A program made the translations under genes and the position numbers. Below, in pieces: positions 6,752-63,481 of a stretch of 64,000 nt of DNA. The stretch is from contig CBDDIJ010000002.1 in assembly GCA_965228855.1 (NCBI GenBank), positions 96,001 through 160,000 on the forward strand, written 5' to 3'. The DNA comes from Candidatus Obscuribacterales bacterium. Lineage in GTDB: Bacteria > Cyanobacteriota > Vampirovibrionia > Obscuribacterales > Obscuribacteraceae. Under the pieces are notes generated by a model. It did no database searches. It was given only the letters and a program-made list of their open reading frames with translations, and was not told the origin of the DNA. Numbering within the stretch: the stretch's first letter is position 1; each line of letters opens with the position of its first letter.

Positions 6752-6902
6752 CGTCTACTATATCTTTTAAGATAATATAAATCCGCAAACACGGTTATGG
6801 ACTCCGCTTCCAGCCATTCAATATTCTCGCTCCGTCGATTTCCAGCCAGCTGTCTACGCTGCATAGACGAATTTTCGAAAATCTGTCTACGCCACGCAGA
6901 CA
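6752..6902. repeat. Repeat element locus 3: left half (arm then core) upstream of PLD-HTH gene
   Basis: CTACTATA 6755; core TGTCTA-CGCTGCA-TAGACG-AATTTTCGAAAATC-TGTCTA-CGCCACG-CAGACA 6851-6902. Confidence 0.85.
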
Positions 6903-7073
6903 ACAATCGCGCATTCAGTTTTTAGCTTGAAATTGCCAGCAATCCCAGTGACCATCGAAATCCTGAGAGCGCGCCTGAAAGTTTCTCAAAAAATCTTTGC
7001 CAAAAATTGAACTTTTTAGTTGTCAATTTCGTAGATCAAATTAGACACCATACGAGTTTTTCGAGGAGGCGTT

Positions 7074-7847
7074 ATGATCGCAACCGAGTCAGATATTTTC
7101 ACGGACGAAACCTTCTGGGACCCCTTCTACACCGACCTTGCCAAAGCCCACAAAAGCATCATCATCAGCTGTCCATTCGTGCGACGGTGGCGGCTCGATC
7201 GACTCGAATACCAACTTAAAACAATGATTCGAAACGGAATTTCCGTTTGTATTTTCGTTCAGACCCCGGCTAGTCTTCGCAAAGAGAAGGGCAATCTCTC
7301 AGCAGAAGAAGATCGCGAAATCTGCGACTACGAGCGGGATATTAAACGCATGAGCACCTGGAAAGCACACGTCACCGAACGACCGCGCGCGCATCAAAAG
7401 TTCGCGATAATCGACGGAACGAAGCTCTGGGAGGGGAGCTTGAACATACTGAGCCACAGAGATGGCGCCGAACACATGCGGAGATTCGACTCCAGATATG
7501 AAGCTGAACGCGTGACAAAACTGCATGAGCTGGACCGCTGTTTCGACTGTGAAGTCTTGAGAGCAAAGTATTTTGTCGCCGCGCCCAATGTGGAACTACA
7601 AAGGCAAATGATTGCGCACGCGATTCACTCGCATCGGAAGTACCAGAAATTTTCGTTGCGTGATTTGAGCGCCGCCAGCGGTGTCGCGCACCAACGAATC
7701 AGTCAAATCGAAAACGCCAAGTACTTACGCGCTATAGACCCGCTCTTCGAGATATTCAATGCCTTGGGTCTGCGATTGATTGTCGCTCAAGCGGATGACG
7801 TTTCTGCGGTGTTGAACCAGATTGATATACGAAGTGCAGCTCGGTAA
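7074..7847 (+). CDS. PLD-family nuclease domain fused to XRE-type helix-turn-helix
   Basis: GAGGAGG RBS; single HKD motif HQKFAIID...WEGSLNIL; CFDC linker; C-terminal FSLRDLSAASGVAHQRISQIEN HTH. Confidence 0.9.
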   Translation: MIATESDIFTDETFWDPFYTDLAKAHKSIIISCPFVRRWRLDRLEYQLKTMIRNGISVCIFVQTPASLRKEKGNLSAEEDREICDYERDIKRMSTWKAHVTERPRAHQKFAIIDGTKLWEGSLNILSHRDGAEHMRRFDSRYEAERVTKLHELDRCFDCEVLRAKYFVAAPNVELQRQMIAHAIHSHRKYQKFSLRDLSAASGVAHQRISQIENAKYLRAIDPLFEIFNALGLRLIVAQADDVSAVLNQIDIRSAAR

Positions 7848-7885
7848 TTGGCGATGCAATCGGAGACCTGCTTCAGAACCCCGGT

Positions 7886-8148
7886 TGGCTATCCTGCTAT
7901 GACGGAAATGCGAACATTCGGCATTCCAGGATAGCCAAACCGTACCAAGCTCAATGGCATCCGTCTCGAAACCTCGACCCAGCGCCATGTTCAAGAAAGA
8001 CGCATCATGACTTCATATAGTAGTAAGGATGGGAGAATTCGGCATTCCAGGATAGCCAAACCAGGGCGAGCTCAAGGGGCATCCCACCGAAACCCCCGAC
8101 ACAGAGCCACATCGGAGATAAGCTTACCACGATGTCCTATAGTAGCAA
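7886..8148. repeat. Repeat element locus 4: right halves (core then arm, twice) downstream of PLD-HTH gene
   Basis: Core 7886-7937 (TGGCTATCCTG...CAGGATAGCCA), arm TATAGTAG 8016-8023, half core ending 8058, arm 8138-8145. Confidence 0.85.
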
Positions 8149-12342: not shown

Positions 12343-12637
12343 GGCGTGATCTCCGATTCTTAGTTTTCTTATGGAGATGAGATGCAAGCAGCGGTTAAAC
12401 TGCTTGCGGTGACCCGAACGAACACATTTCGGTTCAGCCGACCGCGCAACGGCGTCGCACGGTCGCGTTCTGCGTGAGTTAAACAGACGCGCCTGGACGC
12501 ATCTGATGAGGATGTCGCCGACGGCATGGACTTGACCCACTCTGCATACCGGCAGCGGAATGCCAAAAGTCAGCATTCCTCTGACGGTATGACTGAGGCA
12601 AGACATCGATACCGTGGCGAGAAGTCCGAGCGAATCG

Positions 12638-27910: not shown

Positions 27911-28140
27911 GAGCGGACATAGCAATGCCGTCACCTGTTCCTGCGGAGATGAGCGGAACGACGATGCCGTCACCGCTTCTGCTGAGATGACAGGAACGGC
28001 AACGCCGGACCCACTTCTGCGGGGATTAAGTGAACGGCATTGCCGAGACCCACTTCTGCGGGACTGAAAGGAACGGCAACGTCGGCACCCACTTCAGCGG
28101 GACTGAGCGGAACGGCATTGCCGAGACCCGTTTCTGACAT
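27911..28140. repeat. tandem array of six 38-40 bp degenerate units
   Basis: Consensus about GAGCGGAACGGCAWYGCCGAGACCCACTTCTGCGGGACT; units start near 27911, 27951, 27989, 28027, 28066, 28105. Confidence 0.85.
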
Positions 28141-38571: not shown

Positions 38572-38824
38572 TGCCTACTATATACCACAGCATAAGCCAA
38601 ACCGACAAAAGCCATTACCCGCATGGTTTTCAGCCAATCTTCAAGCTCACTCTTGATCGAAACCCGACAGTTTGGCTATCCCACTACGACGGAATTCGCA
38701 AAATCCGGCATTCCCTGATAGACACCGAGCCGAAAATCGACCCGCTTGAAGGTACAAAAACTTCGAAAACCACCACTGAGAAGCCATCGGGCAAAACCGT
38801 TTATACTGCCTTTTATAGTAGACT
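38572..38824. repeat. Repeat element locus 8: symmetric arm-core-arm element
   Basis: CTACTATA 38575, core 38673-38724, TATAGTAG ending 38821 (98/97 bp). Confidence 0.9.
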
Positions 38825-38902: not shown

Positions 38903-40777
38903 TTAGGCGGCTTTGGAAAGCCGCTGGAAGCCGGTCGTGAAGTACTCCAGTTCACGCCGAGACTTGCTCGACAGGTACTTCGGAGTGAAGAAGCGGTCCT
39001 GCCACTTCGCCGTGGGCTCCAGGCTGGCCTCGAACGTGCCCCCGTCGTTGCGGACCATCGACCGGAACCGGTAGTGGTCGTAGACGTCGAGGATGTGCGC
39101 GAGGTACGCAGCAGCGAGGCGATGGTTGCCACGAACGATGAGGAGGTTCTCGTCGTTGGAGTAGCTCGCCTTGAAGCCCAGGTTGTGGCTGCCGAGGATG
39201 ACCACCGGGTCGTCGCCGAACGGGTCGACCACCACGATTTTGTCGTGAATGATCGAGTGGGCTTCCGGAAGCTTCAGAAGCTCCTTCTGCCACTTGCCGA
39301 CCGCCGTTTCCAGCGAATCGGCGGCGATGATCACCGGCCGCTTCTTGTCGTGGTGGAAGATCTGAACCGGGGCTGCCACTTGCGCGGCGGCGGTCAGATC
39401 CGCGAAGGTCCCGCTCACGTCCGGCGAGATGATGCCAGCCGCAGAGCCGTCAGCCGAACTCGCCGGGACCAGCAGACCCGATTCACCGCGAACGAAGCGG
39501 TTGGGCTGCTGAGGCGTGAACGGCTTGGGCAGAGCCTGCGGGCTGGACACCGCGCCGCGGTAGAACAGGTGCTTCTTCCCGAACTGCATCCCGTTGATCT
39601 TGCTGATGATCGAGGGGAAGCCCGGGTAGAACGCGAGGAAGTAGACGCCTTCCTTCGCGCCGTCGATCGCGTCGAAGACTTCGCCCATGTCCACGGGAAC
39701 GGGAGGCTTGGTCTTCGGCTTCACCTTCTCGACGGTGTTGGGCGAGAACCACGCCTGAATGCGCGTCCCGTCCTTGAGCACGACTTCCTTCGGCTTCTTG
39801 CGATTGAAATCGCGGAGCGCCGTGCCCTGCAGTTCGCCCTTGTCGGTGTCTTCCTTGAGGGCGTCCCAGGCCGCGCCGTAGATCTCGCCGAGTTCCTCGG
39901 AGATGACCGACAGCGCGTTGTTGGACTGGCAGCAGAGACCCGTGAACGTCGAGTTCGCACTCGCCGTCAGAACCTCCACCGGGCGACCAGCCTTGTTGTA
40001 CCGCACGTGGGACTTGTTGTGCGGCAGCGACGACTTGGGCAGGATGCGGTCGTGAACTTCCGCTTCCGCCTCATGCAGACGCTTGCGGGCATCCGCGTTG
40101 GTCTCGTCGTTCTCGCCGGCGTTGCCGAGGATGAGGCTGAACACGTCCGTGTTCGCCAGCAGGAAGTCGACGATCTCGGGGTCGGCAAGCTCATAGAGCG
40201 CCGAGTACACGTGACCGTCTTCCGCCTTGGCTCGCTCGAACACGCCCTTGATGAAGCCAGGCAGTTCGCCGGCGAGCATCGTGCGAATCGGGCTGTCCGG
40301 CTTCTTCAGCTCCTCGATGAGCTTCTCGGGGTCGGGACTGCCGTCCTCGAGCTTGGGCAGCATCGACGCCAGCTTCTGCGTGGACAGGATGCCGCGGTTG
40401 AAGCAGGCCTTCATCTGGTCGCTGATCTCGGTCGAGCGCGTCACTTCGTTGGTCGTGACCGCCATCTCGGCGAGAGGCTTGAGATTGTCGGGCTCGCCGA
40501 CCATCGGCACGATTTCGTACTTGTAGGTCTCGCCGGTCTTGCCGCCGAAATCCTTCCACTTGAAACCCTGAATGGGCCACTCGTCCGTGGTACGCGAAGT
40601 CCAGCCTTCGCCGTCCTTCTTCTGGCTGGGGAACGGCAAGTACGCCGGAAGCGTAAACTTCTCGCCGGTCGCGACGTTGATGCGGCGCACCGAGAAGCCG
40701 AGGCAGTTCTCGATGGCCTTGTCGGTCAACCAAACGATGACCGAGCAGGTGTTGTTTCCGAATGCTACAGCTTTCAT
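38903..40777 (-). CDS. phospholipase D-like protein with two HxK motifs
   Basis: HNK...SANST...QSNNA and HDKIVVVD...GSHN...NDEN; AAGGAG RBS. Confidence 0.9.
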   Translation of the reverse strand: MKAVAFGNNTCSVIVWLTDKAIENCLGFSVRRINVATGEKFTLPAYLPFPSQKKDGEGWTSRTTDEWPIQGFKWKDFGGKTGETYKYEIVPMVGEPDNLKPLAEMAVTTNEVTRSTEISDQMKACFNRGILSTQKLASMLPKLEDGSPDPEKLIEELKKPDSPIRTMLAGELPGFIKGVFERAKAEDGHVYSALYELADPEIVDFLLANTDVFSLILGNAGENDETNADARKRLHEAEAEVHDRILPKSSLPHNKSHVRYNKAGRPVEVLTASANSTFTGLCCQSNNALSVISEELGEIYGAAWDALKEDTDKGELQGTALRDFNRKKPKEVVLKDGTRIQAWFSPNTVEKVKPKTKPPVPVDMGEVFDAIDGAKEGVYFLAFYPGFPSIISKINGMQFGKKHLFYRGAVSSPQALPKPFTPQQPNRFVRGESGLLVPASSADGSAAGIISPDVSGTFADLTAAAQVAAPVQIFHHDKKRPVIIAADSLETAVGKWQKELLKLPEAHSIIHDKIVVVDPFGDDPVVILGSHNLGFKASYSNDENLLIVRGNHRLAAAYLAHILDVYDHYRFRSMVRNDGGTFEASLEPTAKWQDRFFTPKYLSSKSRRELEYFTTGFQRLSKAA

Positions 40778-41166: not shown

Positions 41167-41463
41167 AATCTACGATAAATCGCAAGGTCTCCTAACTCGC
41201 GCGAGAGGGTCAACGCGAACAATCACGAAGCTCGCGCGCCGTCTAATCTTCCTCCCCGTCAACGAGCCAGCGACAAAATTCACCAGATCCGTCGCTCTCT
41301 GATTGACAGGGCTCCCGTCGGACAACTCTAAACTCGACCTGTCAACGAGCCAGCGACAAAATACACCAAATCCGTCGCTCTCTGATTGACAGCGCGCCTC
41401 AAAATCCATTTTGTCAACGAGCCGGCGACGAAATCCGCAAAATCCGTCGTGACGAGGAAGGTT
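41167..41463. repeat. Repeat element locus 9: one arm plus three variant cores
   Basis: CTACGATA 41170; cores YGTCAACGAGCC...GATTGACA at 41257-41308 and 41340-41391; partial core from 41412. Confidence 0.8.
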
Positions 41464-49596: not shown

Positions 49597-49864
49597 CGCG
49601 CAGGTCGCTGCAATCTTGATTGCAGGTTTCCAAAGAAAAGCTGCAAACTAATTTGCAGCTCCCTGAATTTCGACTCGAACGTCAACGACTTGGTGCTTCG
49701 CGCAGGTCGCTGCAATCTTGATTGCAGGTTTCCAAAGAAAAGCTGCAAACTAATTTGCAACTGCCTGAATTTCGACTCGAACGTCAACGACTTGGTGCTT
49801 CGCGCAAGTCGCTGCAATCTTGATTGCAGGTTTCCAAAGAAAAGCTGCAAACTAATTTGCAGCT
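49597..49864. repeat. 102-bp tandem repeat (about 2.6 copies) with two palindromes per unit
   Basis: Units at 49597, 49699, 49801; CTGCAATC-TT-GATTGCAG and AGCTGCAAA-CTAA-TTTGCAGCT. Confidence 0.9.
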
Positions 49865-61327: not shown

Positions 61328-61612
61328 TTCCTACTATATGCCGAAGTTTCTCCTTTCTCCCAAATCGCCTGCAAACAGGGCGTTTCGAGCAATGCCCTCC
61401 GCACCCGCCCCTTCTTTGTCTACGCCAGAGCGCCGGATTTCGCCAAATCCGTCTACGCCAGAGCGCCAAGACATTCTACTATATCCCCAAGTATCTACCT
61501 TCTCCAGGAGAGCCCGTGTCTAGAGCGTTTCGAGCAATGCCCTCCTCCGTTCCCCTCCTTTGTCTACGCCAGAGCGCCGGATTTCGCCAAATCCGTCTAC
61601 GCCAGACCGCCA
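61328..61612. repeat. Repeat element locus 11: tandem arm-core units (period about 144 bp)
   Basis: Arms 61331 and 61476; cores 61417-61468 and 61561-61612 (86/85 bp after their arms). Confidence 0.9.
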
Positions 61613-61634
61613 AACCCGAGTCCCAGGACGTAAC

Positions 61635-63191
61635 TCAACGCGTTCGCTCGCGCGCAACTTCGCTCCAAGCGGCGAGTTCCGCCTTCGAAGCGGTACTCGT
61701 GCGCGCCGCCTTCGCGTTTTTCATAACCCGAAGAAACTCCCCGTAAAACCTCTTCGCCTCCGCATGTCGCTTCAACGCCTCAAGCGCCTGTGCTTTGAAG
61801 AAGTAACCTTCAACCCAGTTCTCGTCCCAGAAAAGCGCTCCATTACAAGCCCAAAGCGCATGCTGAAATTCTTTGTTGCGATAAAACGCGATTGCGATCA
61901 ACCGCGACACCTGCTCCGCCATCGTCGAGTCAGAATGCGCAACCCAGATGAAATCAGCGATTGCACCGTCGTAATCGTGCATGTCCATCAAGATCTTGCC
62001 ATGCTGGTGGCGCGCCGACGCATCCGTCGGAGACTGTTTTAGCGCCTTATCTAGAACGCTCAAAGCGCCCTTATAGTCGCCCTTTTCACGCAATTTAAAG
62101 GCTTCCCGCATTCTCGAATCAAACTTTGAAGCGCCTGCGCCCCCACCGCCTTCTGCACCACCATCAGTGGCACCGCTACGTCCAAGAGCACCGCTCTTAG
62201 TACCACTCTTTTGAACACTGGCAACGGCATTTTCCACACTGGAAGAGTAAAAACCTACCGCCATATCTGGTTCATTAATAGACGCCAATTCGAGGTCACG
62301 ACTAGCTTTCGCCTTATCACCCACTTTTTCGTAAGCAAGCGCTCGCAACAAATAGATTCGCCAATAGCCCTTATTATTCTCCAGCGCGAGCGTATAATCT
62401 TTGATAGCTTTCTGGTAGTTCTTCAGAATGTAATAGCAGCGCCCGCGTATCATGTAAGCCAGACCATGCCTCGGATTCATCGCAAGCGTCTTGGTGTAGG
62501 CGTCAATTGCATCGTTAAGTCGATCGAGGTTTATGTACGTAGCGCCGCTAGTGAAAAACATCTGCGCATGCGGCTTTAGTGAACGCGCTTTCTCCAAATC
62601 ACGCAGCCCCAACTCCATGTCAAAAACATATGCGCGACTCGTACCCCGCCAATAAAGCGCGGCAACGTTGTTTGGCTCGAGCGCGAGAATGCGATCGCAG
62701 TCAGCCACTGCATTTTTAAAATCCTTACTGAGCACATAGCTCTTCGCCCTATAGACCAGAGCAGTAGTGCTTTTCGGATTACGTCGTATGATTGCACTAA
62801 AGTCCTTAATCGCAGAACCAAAACGCTCTTCCTGAAGAAAAATGCGTCCTCGCACCATCAACGCCTGGTCATCATCCGGCTTTTCCTTGAGTATGTTTTC
62901 TAAAACAGAAAGCGCTCGATCGATTTTTTTCTTATTGGCCAATGCAACGGCTAGTTGAAGCCGAGGGTTGAGCGGGATCGGTTTCCGGCTTTGCAGTTGC
63001 ACCTGCTGCAGTTTGTCCGGCGATAGATGCGACTCCTTTTTACTGAACTCGGTTCCAACGGACGCGGACCGCTCTCCAGCGTCCGAAGTTGCCTTTGCCA
63101 CCACCGGCGATGACACGATCGTTCCACCAGCCAGTAGCATAAATGCAAACGGCACAATGGGACACTTCACAAATGCTAGCAATTTTTCCAT
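61635..63191 (-). CDS. secreted TPR-repeat protein
   Basis: About 10 TPRs; start near 63191 (the ORF extension to 63362 runs into a repeat core). Confidence 0.85.
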   Translation of the reverse strand: MEKLLAFVKCPIVPFAFMLLAGGTIVSSPVVAKATSDAGERSASVGTEFSKKESHLSPDKLQQVQLQSRKPIPLNPRLQLAVALANKKKIDRALSVLENILKEKPDDDQALMVRGRIFLQEERFGSAIKDFSAIIRRNPKSTTALVYRAKSYVLSKDFKNAVADCDRILALEPNNVAALYWRGTSRAYVFDMELGLRDLEKARSLKPHAQMFFTSGATYINLDRLNDAIDAYTKTLAMNPRHGLAYMIRGRCYYILKNYQKAIKDYTLALENNKGYWRIYLLRALAYEKVGDKAKASRDLELASINEPDMAVGFYSSSVENAVASVQKSGTKSGALGRSGATDGGAEGGGGAGASKFDSRMREAFKLREKGDYKGALSVLDKALKQSPTDASARHQHGKILMDMHDYDGAIADFIWVAHSDSTMAEQVSRLIAIAFYRNKEFQHALWACNGALFWDENWVEGYFFKAQALEALKRHAEAKRFYGEFLRVMKNAKAARTSTASKAELAAWSEVARERTR

Positions 63192-63340
63192 ACCACTCAA
63201 ATGATTTAAGTGTACACCGTCGTATTCGCTCTGGCGAAGTTCGGACCCCGTCCTACATGCCGGTCGCTGCCGGTGAAACGTGATCATTTCAGGTTTCTCA
63301 GACGCCGTTCGTTGTACGCGCCAAACAGAGTCACGCATTT

Positions 63341-63481
63341 TGTCTACGTTGCTATGACGCAATCGGCGAAATCCGGCATCGCCACGTAGCCAAACTTAAC
63401 CCACCCGAACGACCAAACCGACCAATCCCTCTCCCCCAGCCCGATTCCGGAACCCGTTTCTATGATTTTCTATAGTAGTAG
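63341..63481. repeat. Repeat element locus 12: right half (core then arm)
   Basis: Core 63341-63392; TATAGTAG 63471-63478 (86 bp). Confidence 0.85.

Follow-up and report, generated by a model that had tools for sequence, protein, structure and literature searches.

To our knowledge, every enzyme so far known to mobilise bacterial repeats relies on HUH, DDE, tyrosine, serine or DEDD chemistry. In the REPIN-RAYT systems, hundreds of short extragenic palindromes per genome accompany a single-copy, position-stable gene flanked by its own repeats, several gene-repeat pairs coexist in one genome, and turnover is slow with vertical inheritance (bioRxiv 10.1101/2021.07.10.451892; PMC3479197). The REP unit is a GTAG/CGTC tag (PMC3733652) at the foot of a short hairpin, with two units inverted. 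Among enzymes of the PLD family, BfiI transesterifies DNA and makes hairpins, and both BfiI and Nuc have one HKD motif per chain and one active site per dimer (PMC2475615). The vaccinia PLD-family protein K4 is annotated as a DNA nicking-joining enzyme (PMC11980589), and the operators of HipB are given as TATCC-N8-GGATA (PMC3376134).

The locus described here lies in a 64-kb window (G000:C2:96001-160000) of the source genome (G000), that of a bacterium related to the cyanobacteria but non-photosynthetic, which was compared with a related genome (G007) that is ~95% identical. It contains a gene for a PLD-HTH protein bracketed by inward-facing repeats of a family named A (Table 1). The core of this repeat is 52 bp long and consists of two GKC-N11-GMC boxes 33 bp apart, the half-sites being the invariant positions. 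The left arm, CTACTATA at 6755, is a degenerate TAC-N11-GTA / ACTA-N7-TAGT dyad. An arm was found 90-145 bp from the core centre in 207 of the 392 half-elements of the source genome, with peaks of the distance at 101, 112, 123-124 and 135 bp, that is, in steps of one helical turn, and the linker length is quantised in ~11-bp steps across the family. When hairpin folding was evaluated, the left core was weak (z -1.9) and the right core reached z -5.9. The invariant GKC/GMC half-sites together with the weak fold of the left core favour a double-stranded readout, and the boxes thus point to recognition of double-stranded DNA rather than of a hairpin.

Table 1. Coordinates of the features at the PLD-HTH locus (positions within the 64-kb window).
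Feature	Position	Strand	Evidence or remark
Left arm, CTACTATA-N6-xGAT	6755..6774	+	Start of arm-linker-core block; ~123 bp from core centre
Left linker	6775..6850	+	Locus-specific sequence
Left core, two 19-bp boxes 33 bp apart	6851..6902	.	GKC-N11-GMC boxes around A/T-tract spacer
24-bp pseudo-palindrome upstream of the gene	7005..7028	.	Sequence; possible promoter/operator
Shine-Dalgarno-like GAGGAGG	7063..7069	+	Sequence
ORF, 257-aa PLD-HTH protein	7074..7847	+	ORF call, Pfam, profile matches, AF2 fold matches
Right core, complete two-box palindrome	7886..7937	.	Core profile
Right linker and arm (arm 8016-8023)	7938..8023	-	Arm ~111 bp from core centre, pointing at core
Local tandem duplicate: half core 8036-8058, linker, second right arm 8138-8145	8036..8145	-	Sequence; rearranged in related strains

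The inward-facing bracket reported in the first-pass annotation is real, as arms and cores were located on both sides of the gene and the core profile found 221 cores in the genome but not a single one once the genome had been shuffled. That annotation had supposed one element divided by the gene, which is incorrect, since a whole two-box core stands on each side. The annotation's reading of two successive core-then-arm units on the right (7886-8148) holds for the first copy, which has a whole core, but not for the second, which has a half core. The bracket by itself does not single out this gene because, in the source genome, 6 of the 19 gaps of up to 2.2 kb are bracketed in the same way, namely the focal gene and five other small loci. 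A TPR-protein gene (61638-63362) also lies within an inward arm>core / core<arm pair (window 61416-63393). Other repeats in the window include 72-83-bp tandem arrays of a GTCAAT subtype of the core (41257-41450, and elsewhere L020:1042-2647) and five tandem 38-39-bp repeats at 27935-28136. No Rfam family was found in the window; the integron attC and telomere-resolvase readings of core and arm were dropped for want of an Rfam or integrase link, and a sigma-70 promoter reading of the arm for want of a conserved -35 upstream of it.

The protein has a single-HKD PLD nuclease-type domain (residues ~1-150), a CxxC pair (C156/C159) and an XRE/HipB-like HTH (179-235), in which H206 opens the predicted recognition helix. 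The motif HxKx4Dx6GSxN (H107, K109, D114, G121, S122, N124) is present on a PLD fold in both the sequence and the AF2 model (pLDDT 83.6), which matches SauUSI, PLD3/4, Zucchini, Nuc and NucT by fold, and the C-terminal part of which matches HipB (8EZT). The Pfam scores were found just below their cut-offs (PLDc_2, 24.6 bits against 27; HTH_3, 21.8 bits against 23). Taken with the motif residues and the fold, these near-misses bear out the composition of single-HKD PLD, CxxC and XRE HTH assigned earlier. The best profile match of the PLD domain was Mokosh MkoC (E 1.7e-8; 6/6 aligned members), confined to the PLD stretch, and helicase-fused PLD domains are also near; the best HTH match was the HipB-type TIGR03070, with 31 bits against a curated cut-off of 71.65. 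A sequence search of solved structures gave no match below E 0.1, and the ESM Atlas returned just generic HTH clusters (<=0.82).

The gene was described as lower in GC, which is true relative to its neighbours (0.51 against 0.56 and 0.64) but not relative to the genome background (0.50-0.53), which it equals. Its neighbours are metallophosphoesterase and PmbA/TldD genes. Compared with its counterpart in the related genome, it has 25 synonymous and 5 non-synonymous codon differences. The 24-bp pseudo-palindrome upstream of it recurs upstream of a 54%-identical paralogue in the related genome. No methylase or HipA gene adjoins it, no helicase partner is fused or adjacent to it, a DISARM operon is likewise absent, and the 64-kb window shows no defence-island context. 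No transposase or integrase was found in the window either, as had been stated: Pfam families of these kinds had 0 matches among the 51 ORFs scanned (20 of them without any match), and PF00589 and PF01797 had none inside the window. A second PLD-domain protein of 624 aa (window 38906-40777) is unrelated to the focal protein by tblastn, and its gene lies just beyond a type-A element (38672-38725).

A search with the PLD-HTH family profile gave 243 clusters at E<=1e-30, including some PLD-only fusions. The profile matched 56 of the 107 genomes of the order, helicase-fused PLD domains included, and at 1e-45 none of 200 other genomes of the phylum. Among the best 15 named records, nearly all full-length, the sources were Ca. 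Obscuribacterales, Obscuribacteraceae or Melainabacteria, with one Bryobacterales, and other taxa matched the PLD part only. By these searches, the family is confined to Obscuribacterales-like genomes. It belongs to the Obscuribacterales and is undescribed; a search of open-access text found no description of the family or its repeat. Of the 71 proteins aligned, 70 retain H107 and K109, all 71 retain D114 and N124, and 69-70 retain the CxxC. In viral contigs, 28 pattern matches were obtained with none confirmed and no viral relative found, and in a metagenome scan 2 of 80 loci were full-length, the remainder being PLD domains of other proteins. Tandem PLD-HTH gene pairs with one member truncated to the PLD part were observed at L012/L027 (G003:C770) and L220 (G013:C13).

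The closest PLD profile matches are thus Mokosh MkoB/MkoC and DISARM DrmC, and helicase-fused relatives occur within the same order; unlike those systems, the PLD-HTH protein has a fused HTH and no helicase partner, and the helicase-fused genes lack double boxes (0/15). With one HKD per chain, as in BfiI, Nuc and Zucchini, one active site per dimer would be expected by analogy, and phospho-His chemistry allows rejoining. BfiI, a restriction enzyme, recognises an asymmetric site of 6 bp and has another type of binding domain; in contrast, the cognate sites in the focal host are long and number in the hundreds, and the PLD-HTH gene has no methylase gene next to it. Vaccinia K4, likewise of the PLD family and annotated as nicking-joining DNA, is likened to the focal protein by description only; it is viral, and we know of no HTH or repeat family associated with it.

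In the source genome, 180 of the 221 cores lie in C2 0-1.2 Mb, around dnaA (793 kb) and the GC-skew flip, with 132 clusters in 1.25 Mb or about one cluster per 9.5 kb. The cores are extragenic in the window and at the inspected sites. The core pattern was found in 2 of 41 genomes and a stricter pattern in 2 of 107, both times in G000 and G007, and homologues at least 54% identical occur only in these two among the 41 protein-searched genomes. In these searches, core and close homologues thus share the same two genomes, which counts as one event and not two, because the two genomes are ~95% identical. The origin-proximal region (G000:C2:1-1200000) has a GC content of 0.53-0.59 against ~0.50 in the rest of the genome. 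IS110-like transposase ORFs are inserted at type-A cores at G000:C2:774710, 858571, 988081 and 1120780 and are absent at the same sites of G007.

The type-A repeat is absent beside homologues of 25-40% identity. A sequence-blind detector for two palindromic boxes, built on four half-sites, found double boxes beside homologues, nearly all 32-33 bp apart. For validation, its settings were fixed at a spacing of 32-34 and a score of 19, and the scan covered 15 helicase-PLD loci together with 65 full-length loci drawn from 26 genomes, with G000, G007, a tiny contig and broken or partial copies set aside. Double boxes were found within 700 bp of the gene at 16 of 46 validation loci and 6 of 19 previously seen loci. 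The corresponding figures were 1 of 461 for distal windows and 0 of 15 for the helicase-fused PLD genes; control spacings off this geometry gave 3/46 and 5/46 validation loci. By intergenic region, a box was present in 16 of 91 adjacent and 1 of 144 other regions (p=1e-6, with kin not independent). Many boxes sit just past the stop codon of the PLD-HTH gene, mostly on one side, with strict boxes on both sides at 1 of 46 validation loci. In the origin region of the source genome, a spacing scan over 27-40 bp gave a single peak at 33 bp (45 matches against 0-10).

Six of these boxes were searched genome-wide, and the copies numbered 10 and 43 in G013, 4 in G016, 16 in G010, 25 in G012 and 5 in G005 (with one more in G006). 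Each was a dispersed family in one genome of the 5-26 searched, one family being shared by two congeners, and neither the remaining genomes searched for a given box nor the reversed controls contained a copy. The expectation that homologues are flanked by the repeat was therefore borne out in part: 16 of the 46 validation loci lie near a double box of their own, whereas 30 have no strict box and the more distant homologues lack type A itself. The double palindromes beside homologues, together with residue-base covariation, give good support to a cognate pairing of gene and repeat, and, judged from sequence, the pairing of homologues with genome-specific double palindromes of their own is well supported.

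The covariation was examined in 27 protein-box pairs (22 from the detector and 5 hand-placed), with 24 HTH columns against 10 box positions giving 240 column-position pairs. The top pair was residue 206 with the base 7-7.5 from the box centre (-7/-7.5), with z 8.05 against 4.14 for the next. The combinations were Q-A 14, Q-T 1, R-G 5, R-A 1, H/F/V-T 5 and L-A 1, and Gln-adenine and Arg-guanine are classic contacts. With one row per clade, clades being taken from a quick IQ-TREE search, 16-17 of 19 clades agree (p 5e-5 to 1e-4), and correction of the better p for 240 pairs gives 0.012. Two paralogues outside the test also fit, one with Arg and G in all four half-sites and the other with Gln and A. 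Because one amino acid tracks one box base, each protein likely binds its own repeat. This covariation is the strongest evidence for the HTH reading the boxes; it strongly suggests direct binding, and the protein very probably binds them. Many boxes of Gln members resemble the HipB operator TATCC-N8-GGATA (PMC3376134). The XRE HTH of similar fold, the paired 18-bp palindromic boxes and the TAT-type half-sites in Gln members are all HipB-like, but, unlike in HipBA, where the operators are confined to the promoter of the gene, the boxes are scattered over the whole genome and often follow the gene, there is no HipA partner, and a nuclease is fused.

The source genome has five paralogues, all in C2 0.07-1.04 Mb. 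Paralogues are 26-54% identical, and three of those in the source genome are found with three different dispersed families of 221, 46 and 23 copies. The second family (46 copies, 11 clusters) brackets one paralogue and one extra gene, and the third (23 copies, 8 clusters) lies upstream of another. Beside a further paralogue lie four double boxes with a spacing of 28-29 bp, of which 1-3 more occur elsewhere, and the paralogue whose HKD is dead has no more than three repeats, all of them local. In the related genome, the 54%-identical paralogue of the focal protein sits between 6 and 4 type-A cores of the GTCAAT subtype; the source genome lacks this paralogue but has the arrays. Besides the focal gene, three PLD-HTH units occur in one genome of the pair but not in its relative, which carries type-A repeats at the corresponding site. 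In the window, the second family (CTGCAA-N6-TTGCAG, 33 bp) is represented by three copies at 49608-49862 (G000:C2:145608-145862), 161 bp from a type-A core, and arrays of this family differ between the two genomes at several sites. The 28-29-bp (C-type) double box has a lone match at window 12546-12590 (G000:C2:108546), 900 kb from its PLD-HTH gene. An SDR gene lies between type-A elements in the related genome only (L045:5949-7639, G007:C3), where the source genome has a B-family array. Thirty scattered single-box matches to the E pattern were uncontrolled and were excluded from the results.

Sixteen pairs of related but distant elements were aligned. Their resemblance begins at CTACTA: identity is at chance upstream of it (0.16-0.35 against 0.25-0.32), reaches 0.84-0.90 across the core against 0.60-0.63 in random pairs, and has returned to chance ~10 bp beyond the core. 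The likeness of the linkers is partly due to the choice of pairs, which were picked for alike linkers. This profile implies that the copied unit is arm-linker-core with a fixed start. The copying is slow and the sites are old. All 59 anchored clusters of the source genome have a core in the related genome and 61 of 66 do in the reverse direction (two of the misses being artefacts of the anchors), and 33 of the 59 have the same number of copies in both genomes; at 23 sites the cores are 96% and the linkers 87% identical. The focal gene is single-copy and occupies the same place in the related genome and in contigs of three other studies, with flanks rearranged at core edges. Five sites aligned between the two genomes showed no clean empty site or target duplication, and one junction fell inside a core and one at a core edge. 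A phased arm shared by all families was not found, CTACTA being near 1 of 22 boxes of other families; in G012, 5 of 40 half-elements have a similar but unphased CTACTA-N7-TAGT dyad at a distance of 51-103 bp, placed after terminators. The limitation of the phased arm to family A and the similar dyad in G012 suggest that the arm is possibly a host site used as target.

Alternative catalysts were also looked for. Y1/RAYT (PF01797) had no match in the two genomes, against 6 of 14 control genomes. Seventeen tyrosine-recombinase matches and the IS110 copies inside cores are without a specific link to cores; tyrosine recombinases 1.4 and 2.0 kb from a core are within chance at the observed cluster density.

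The system works like REPIN-RAYT yet falls outside it by its enzyme and repeat anatomy. Shared features are the 221 short palindromic extragenic cores, several gene-repeat pairs per genome, slow turnover, a gene flanked by its own repeats (on both sides at the focal locus and the G007 paralogue, mostly on one side in other homologues), and a single-copy gene with a position kept in the lineage, although three other PLD-HTH units do differ between the two genomes. In contrast, the enzyme is a PLD (HKD) with an XRE HTH and not the HUH/Y1 of RAYT; specificity apparently comes from double-stranded boxes via the HTH rather than from a single-stranded hairpin; the repeat is a 33-bp double box with GKC/GMC half-sites, GTAG occurring in arm and box; and family A has a helically phased arm and crowds at the origin. 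Insertion sequences with MITE derivatives have a multi-copy transposase gene, terminal repeats, target duplications and empty sites; here the gene is single-copy, the blocks have a fixed CTACTA start, and the five aligned sites showed neither duplication nor clean empty site.

We consider it moderately probable that the gene encodes a PLD nuclease-HTH whose HTH binds its own double palindrome and whose PLD domain nicks DNA so that the repeat is slowly copied. In such a mechanism, two dimers would sit on the two boxes on the same helix face, since 33 bp make three turns, would be in phase with the arm at a distance of 7-10 turns, and would loop to the arm or make an aligned contact with it. The shared HKD site would then make a phospho-His nick, and host repair or PLD transesterification would paste the arm-linker-core block at a CTACTA-type site or onto another core. 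The gene would rarely move, as with RAYT, and new paralogues would arise in repeat slots, each founding a new repeat family. The copying step, which we infer to be nuclease-driven, is moderately probable.

In the main rival explanation, the protein binds the boxes but serves another purpose. It would organise the chromosome or act as a regulator in the origin region, the repeats would spread through host recombination or a different recombinase, and the PLD site would have another task, such as breaking down DNA or RNA during stress or phage infection, like the PLD proteins of Mokosh or DISARM DrmC. The crowding of cores around dnaA fits this reading, although about half of the genomes of the order have no family match, unlike a housekeeping centromere system. 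Stable positions and cores better conserved than linkers fit it also, but even close genera differ in their box sequences, and a single genome can contain several families. A HipB-like HTH and boxes resembling its operator (PMC3376134) would suit a regulator; many boxes, however, lie just past a stop codon, where an operator would not act. The proximity of the PLD domain to MkoC and helicase-fused PLD domains would suit a defence task, against which stands the absence of a defence-island context in the window. On balance, we hold this reading to be doubtful.

A further alternative is that the bracketed gene is an autonomous transposon-like unit, that arm>core<arm elements are its deletion derivatives, and that core-by-core recombination also moves cargo as in a cassette system. 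The three PLD-HTH units that differ between the genomes at type-A repeats, the SDR gene found between repeats in the related genome only, and the junctions within a core and at a core edge agree with it, and the evidence for cassette mobilisation is anecdotal. The constant position of the focal gene, its single copy, paralogues too diverged to be recent copies (26-54% identity) and the lack of a target duplication, clean empty site or viral relative in the comparisons above argue against such a unit, which we regard as improbable. A last possibility is that another agent made the repeats and the gene merely lies among them as passive cargo. The dense repeats near the origin, the five other loci bracketed likewise and the 25-40% identical homologues without type A would allow it, but chance position explains neither why boxes are enriched next to homologues in 26 genomes nor the residue-base covariation, and we regard it as highly unlikely.

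Nicking by a box-bound PLD-HTH protein remains the preferred reading, and a bolder form of it is put forward tentatively. The protein could be a PLD nicking-joining replicator, selfish or domesticated, in which one HTH residue change re-programs the site and founds a repeat family, and arm-linker-core blocks, at times with their own gene or cargo, are copied by phospho-histidine strand transfer; it might then be the first PLD transposase-like enzyme. PLD-HTH proteins are compact 250-aa predicted nucleases with long predicted sites, and with its 243 clusters the family supplies hundreds of natural pairings of HTH and site that follow a readable residue-base rule. If true, a PLD repeat mobiliser would extend the known catalytic classes by one, and the RAYT/REP lifestyle would have arisen twice, from unrelated components.
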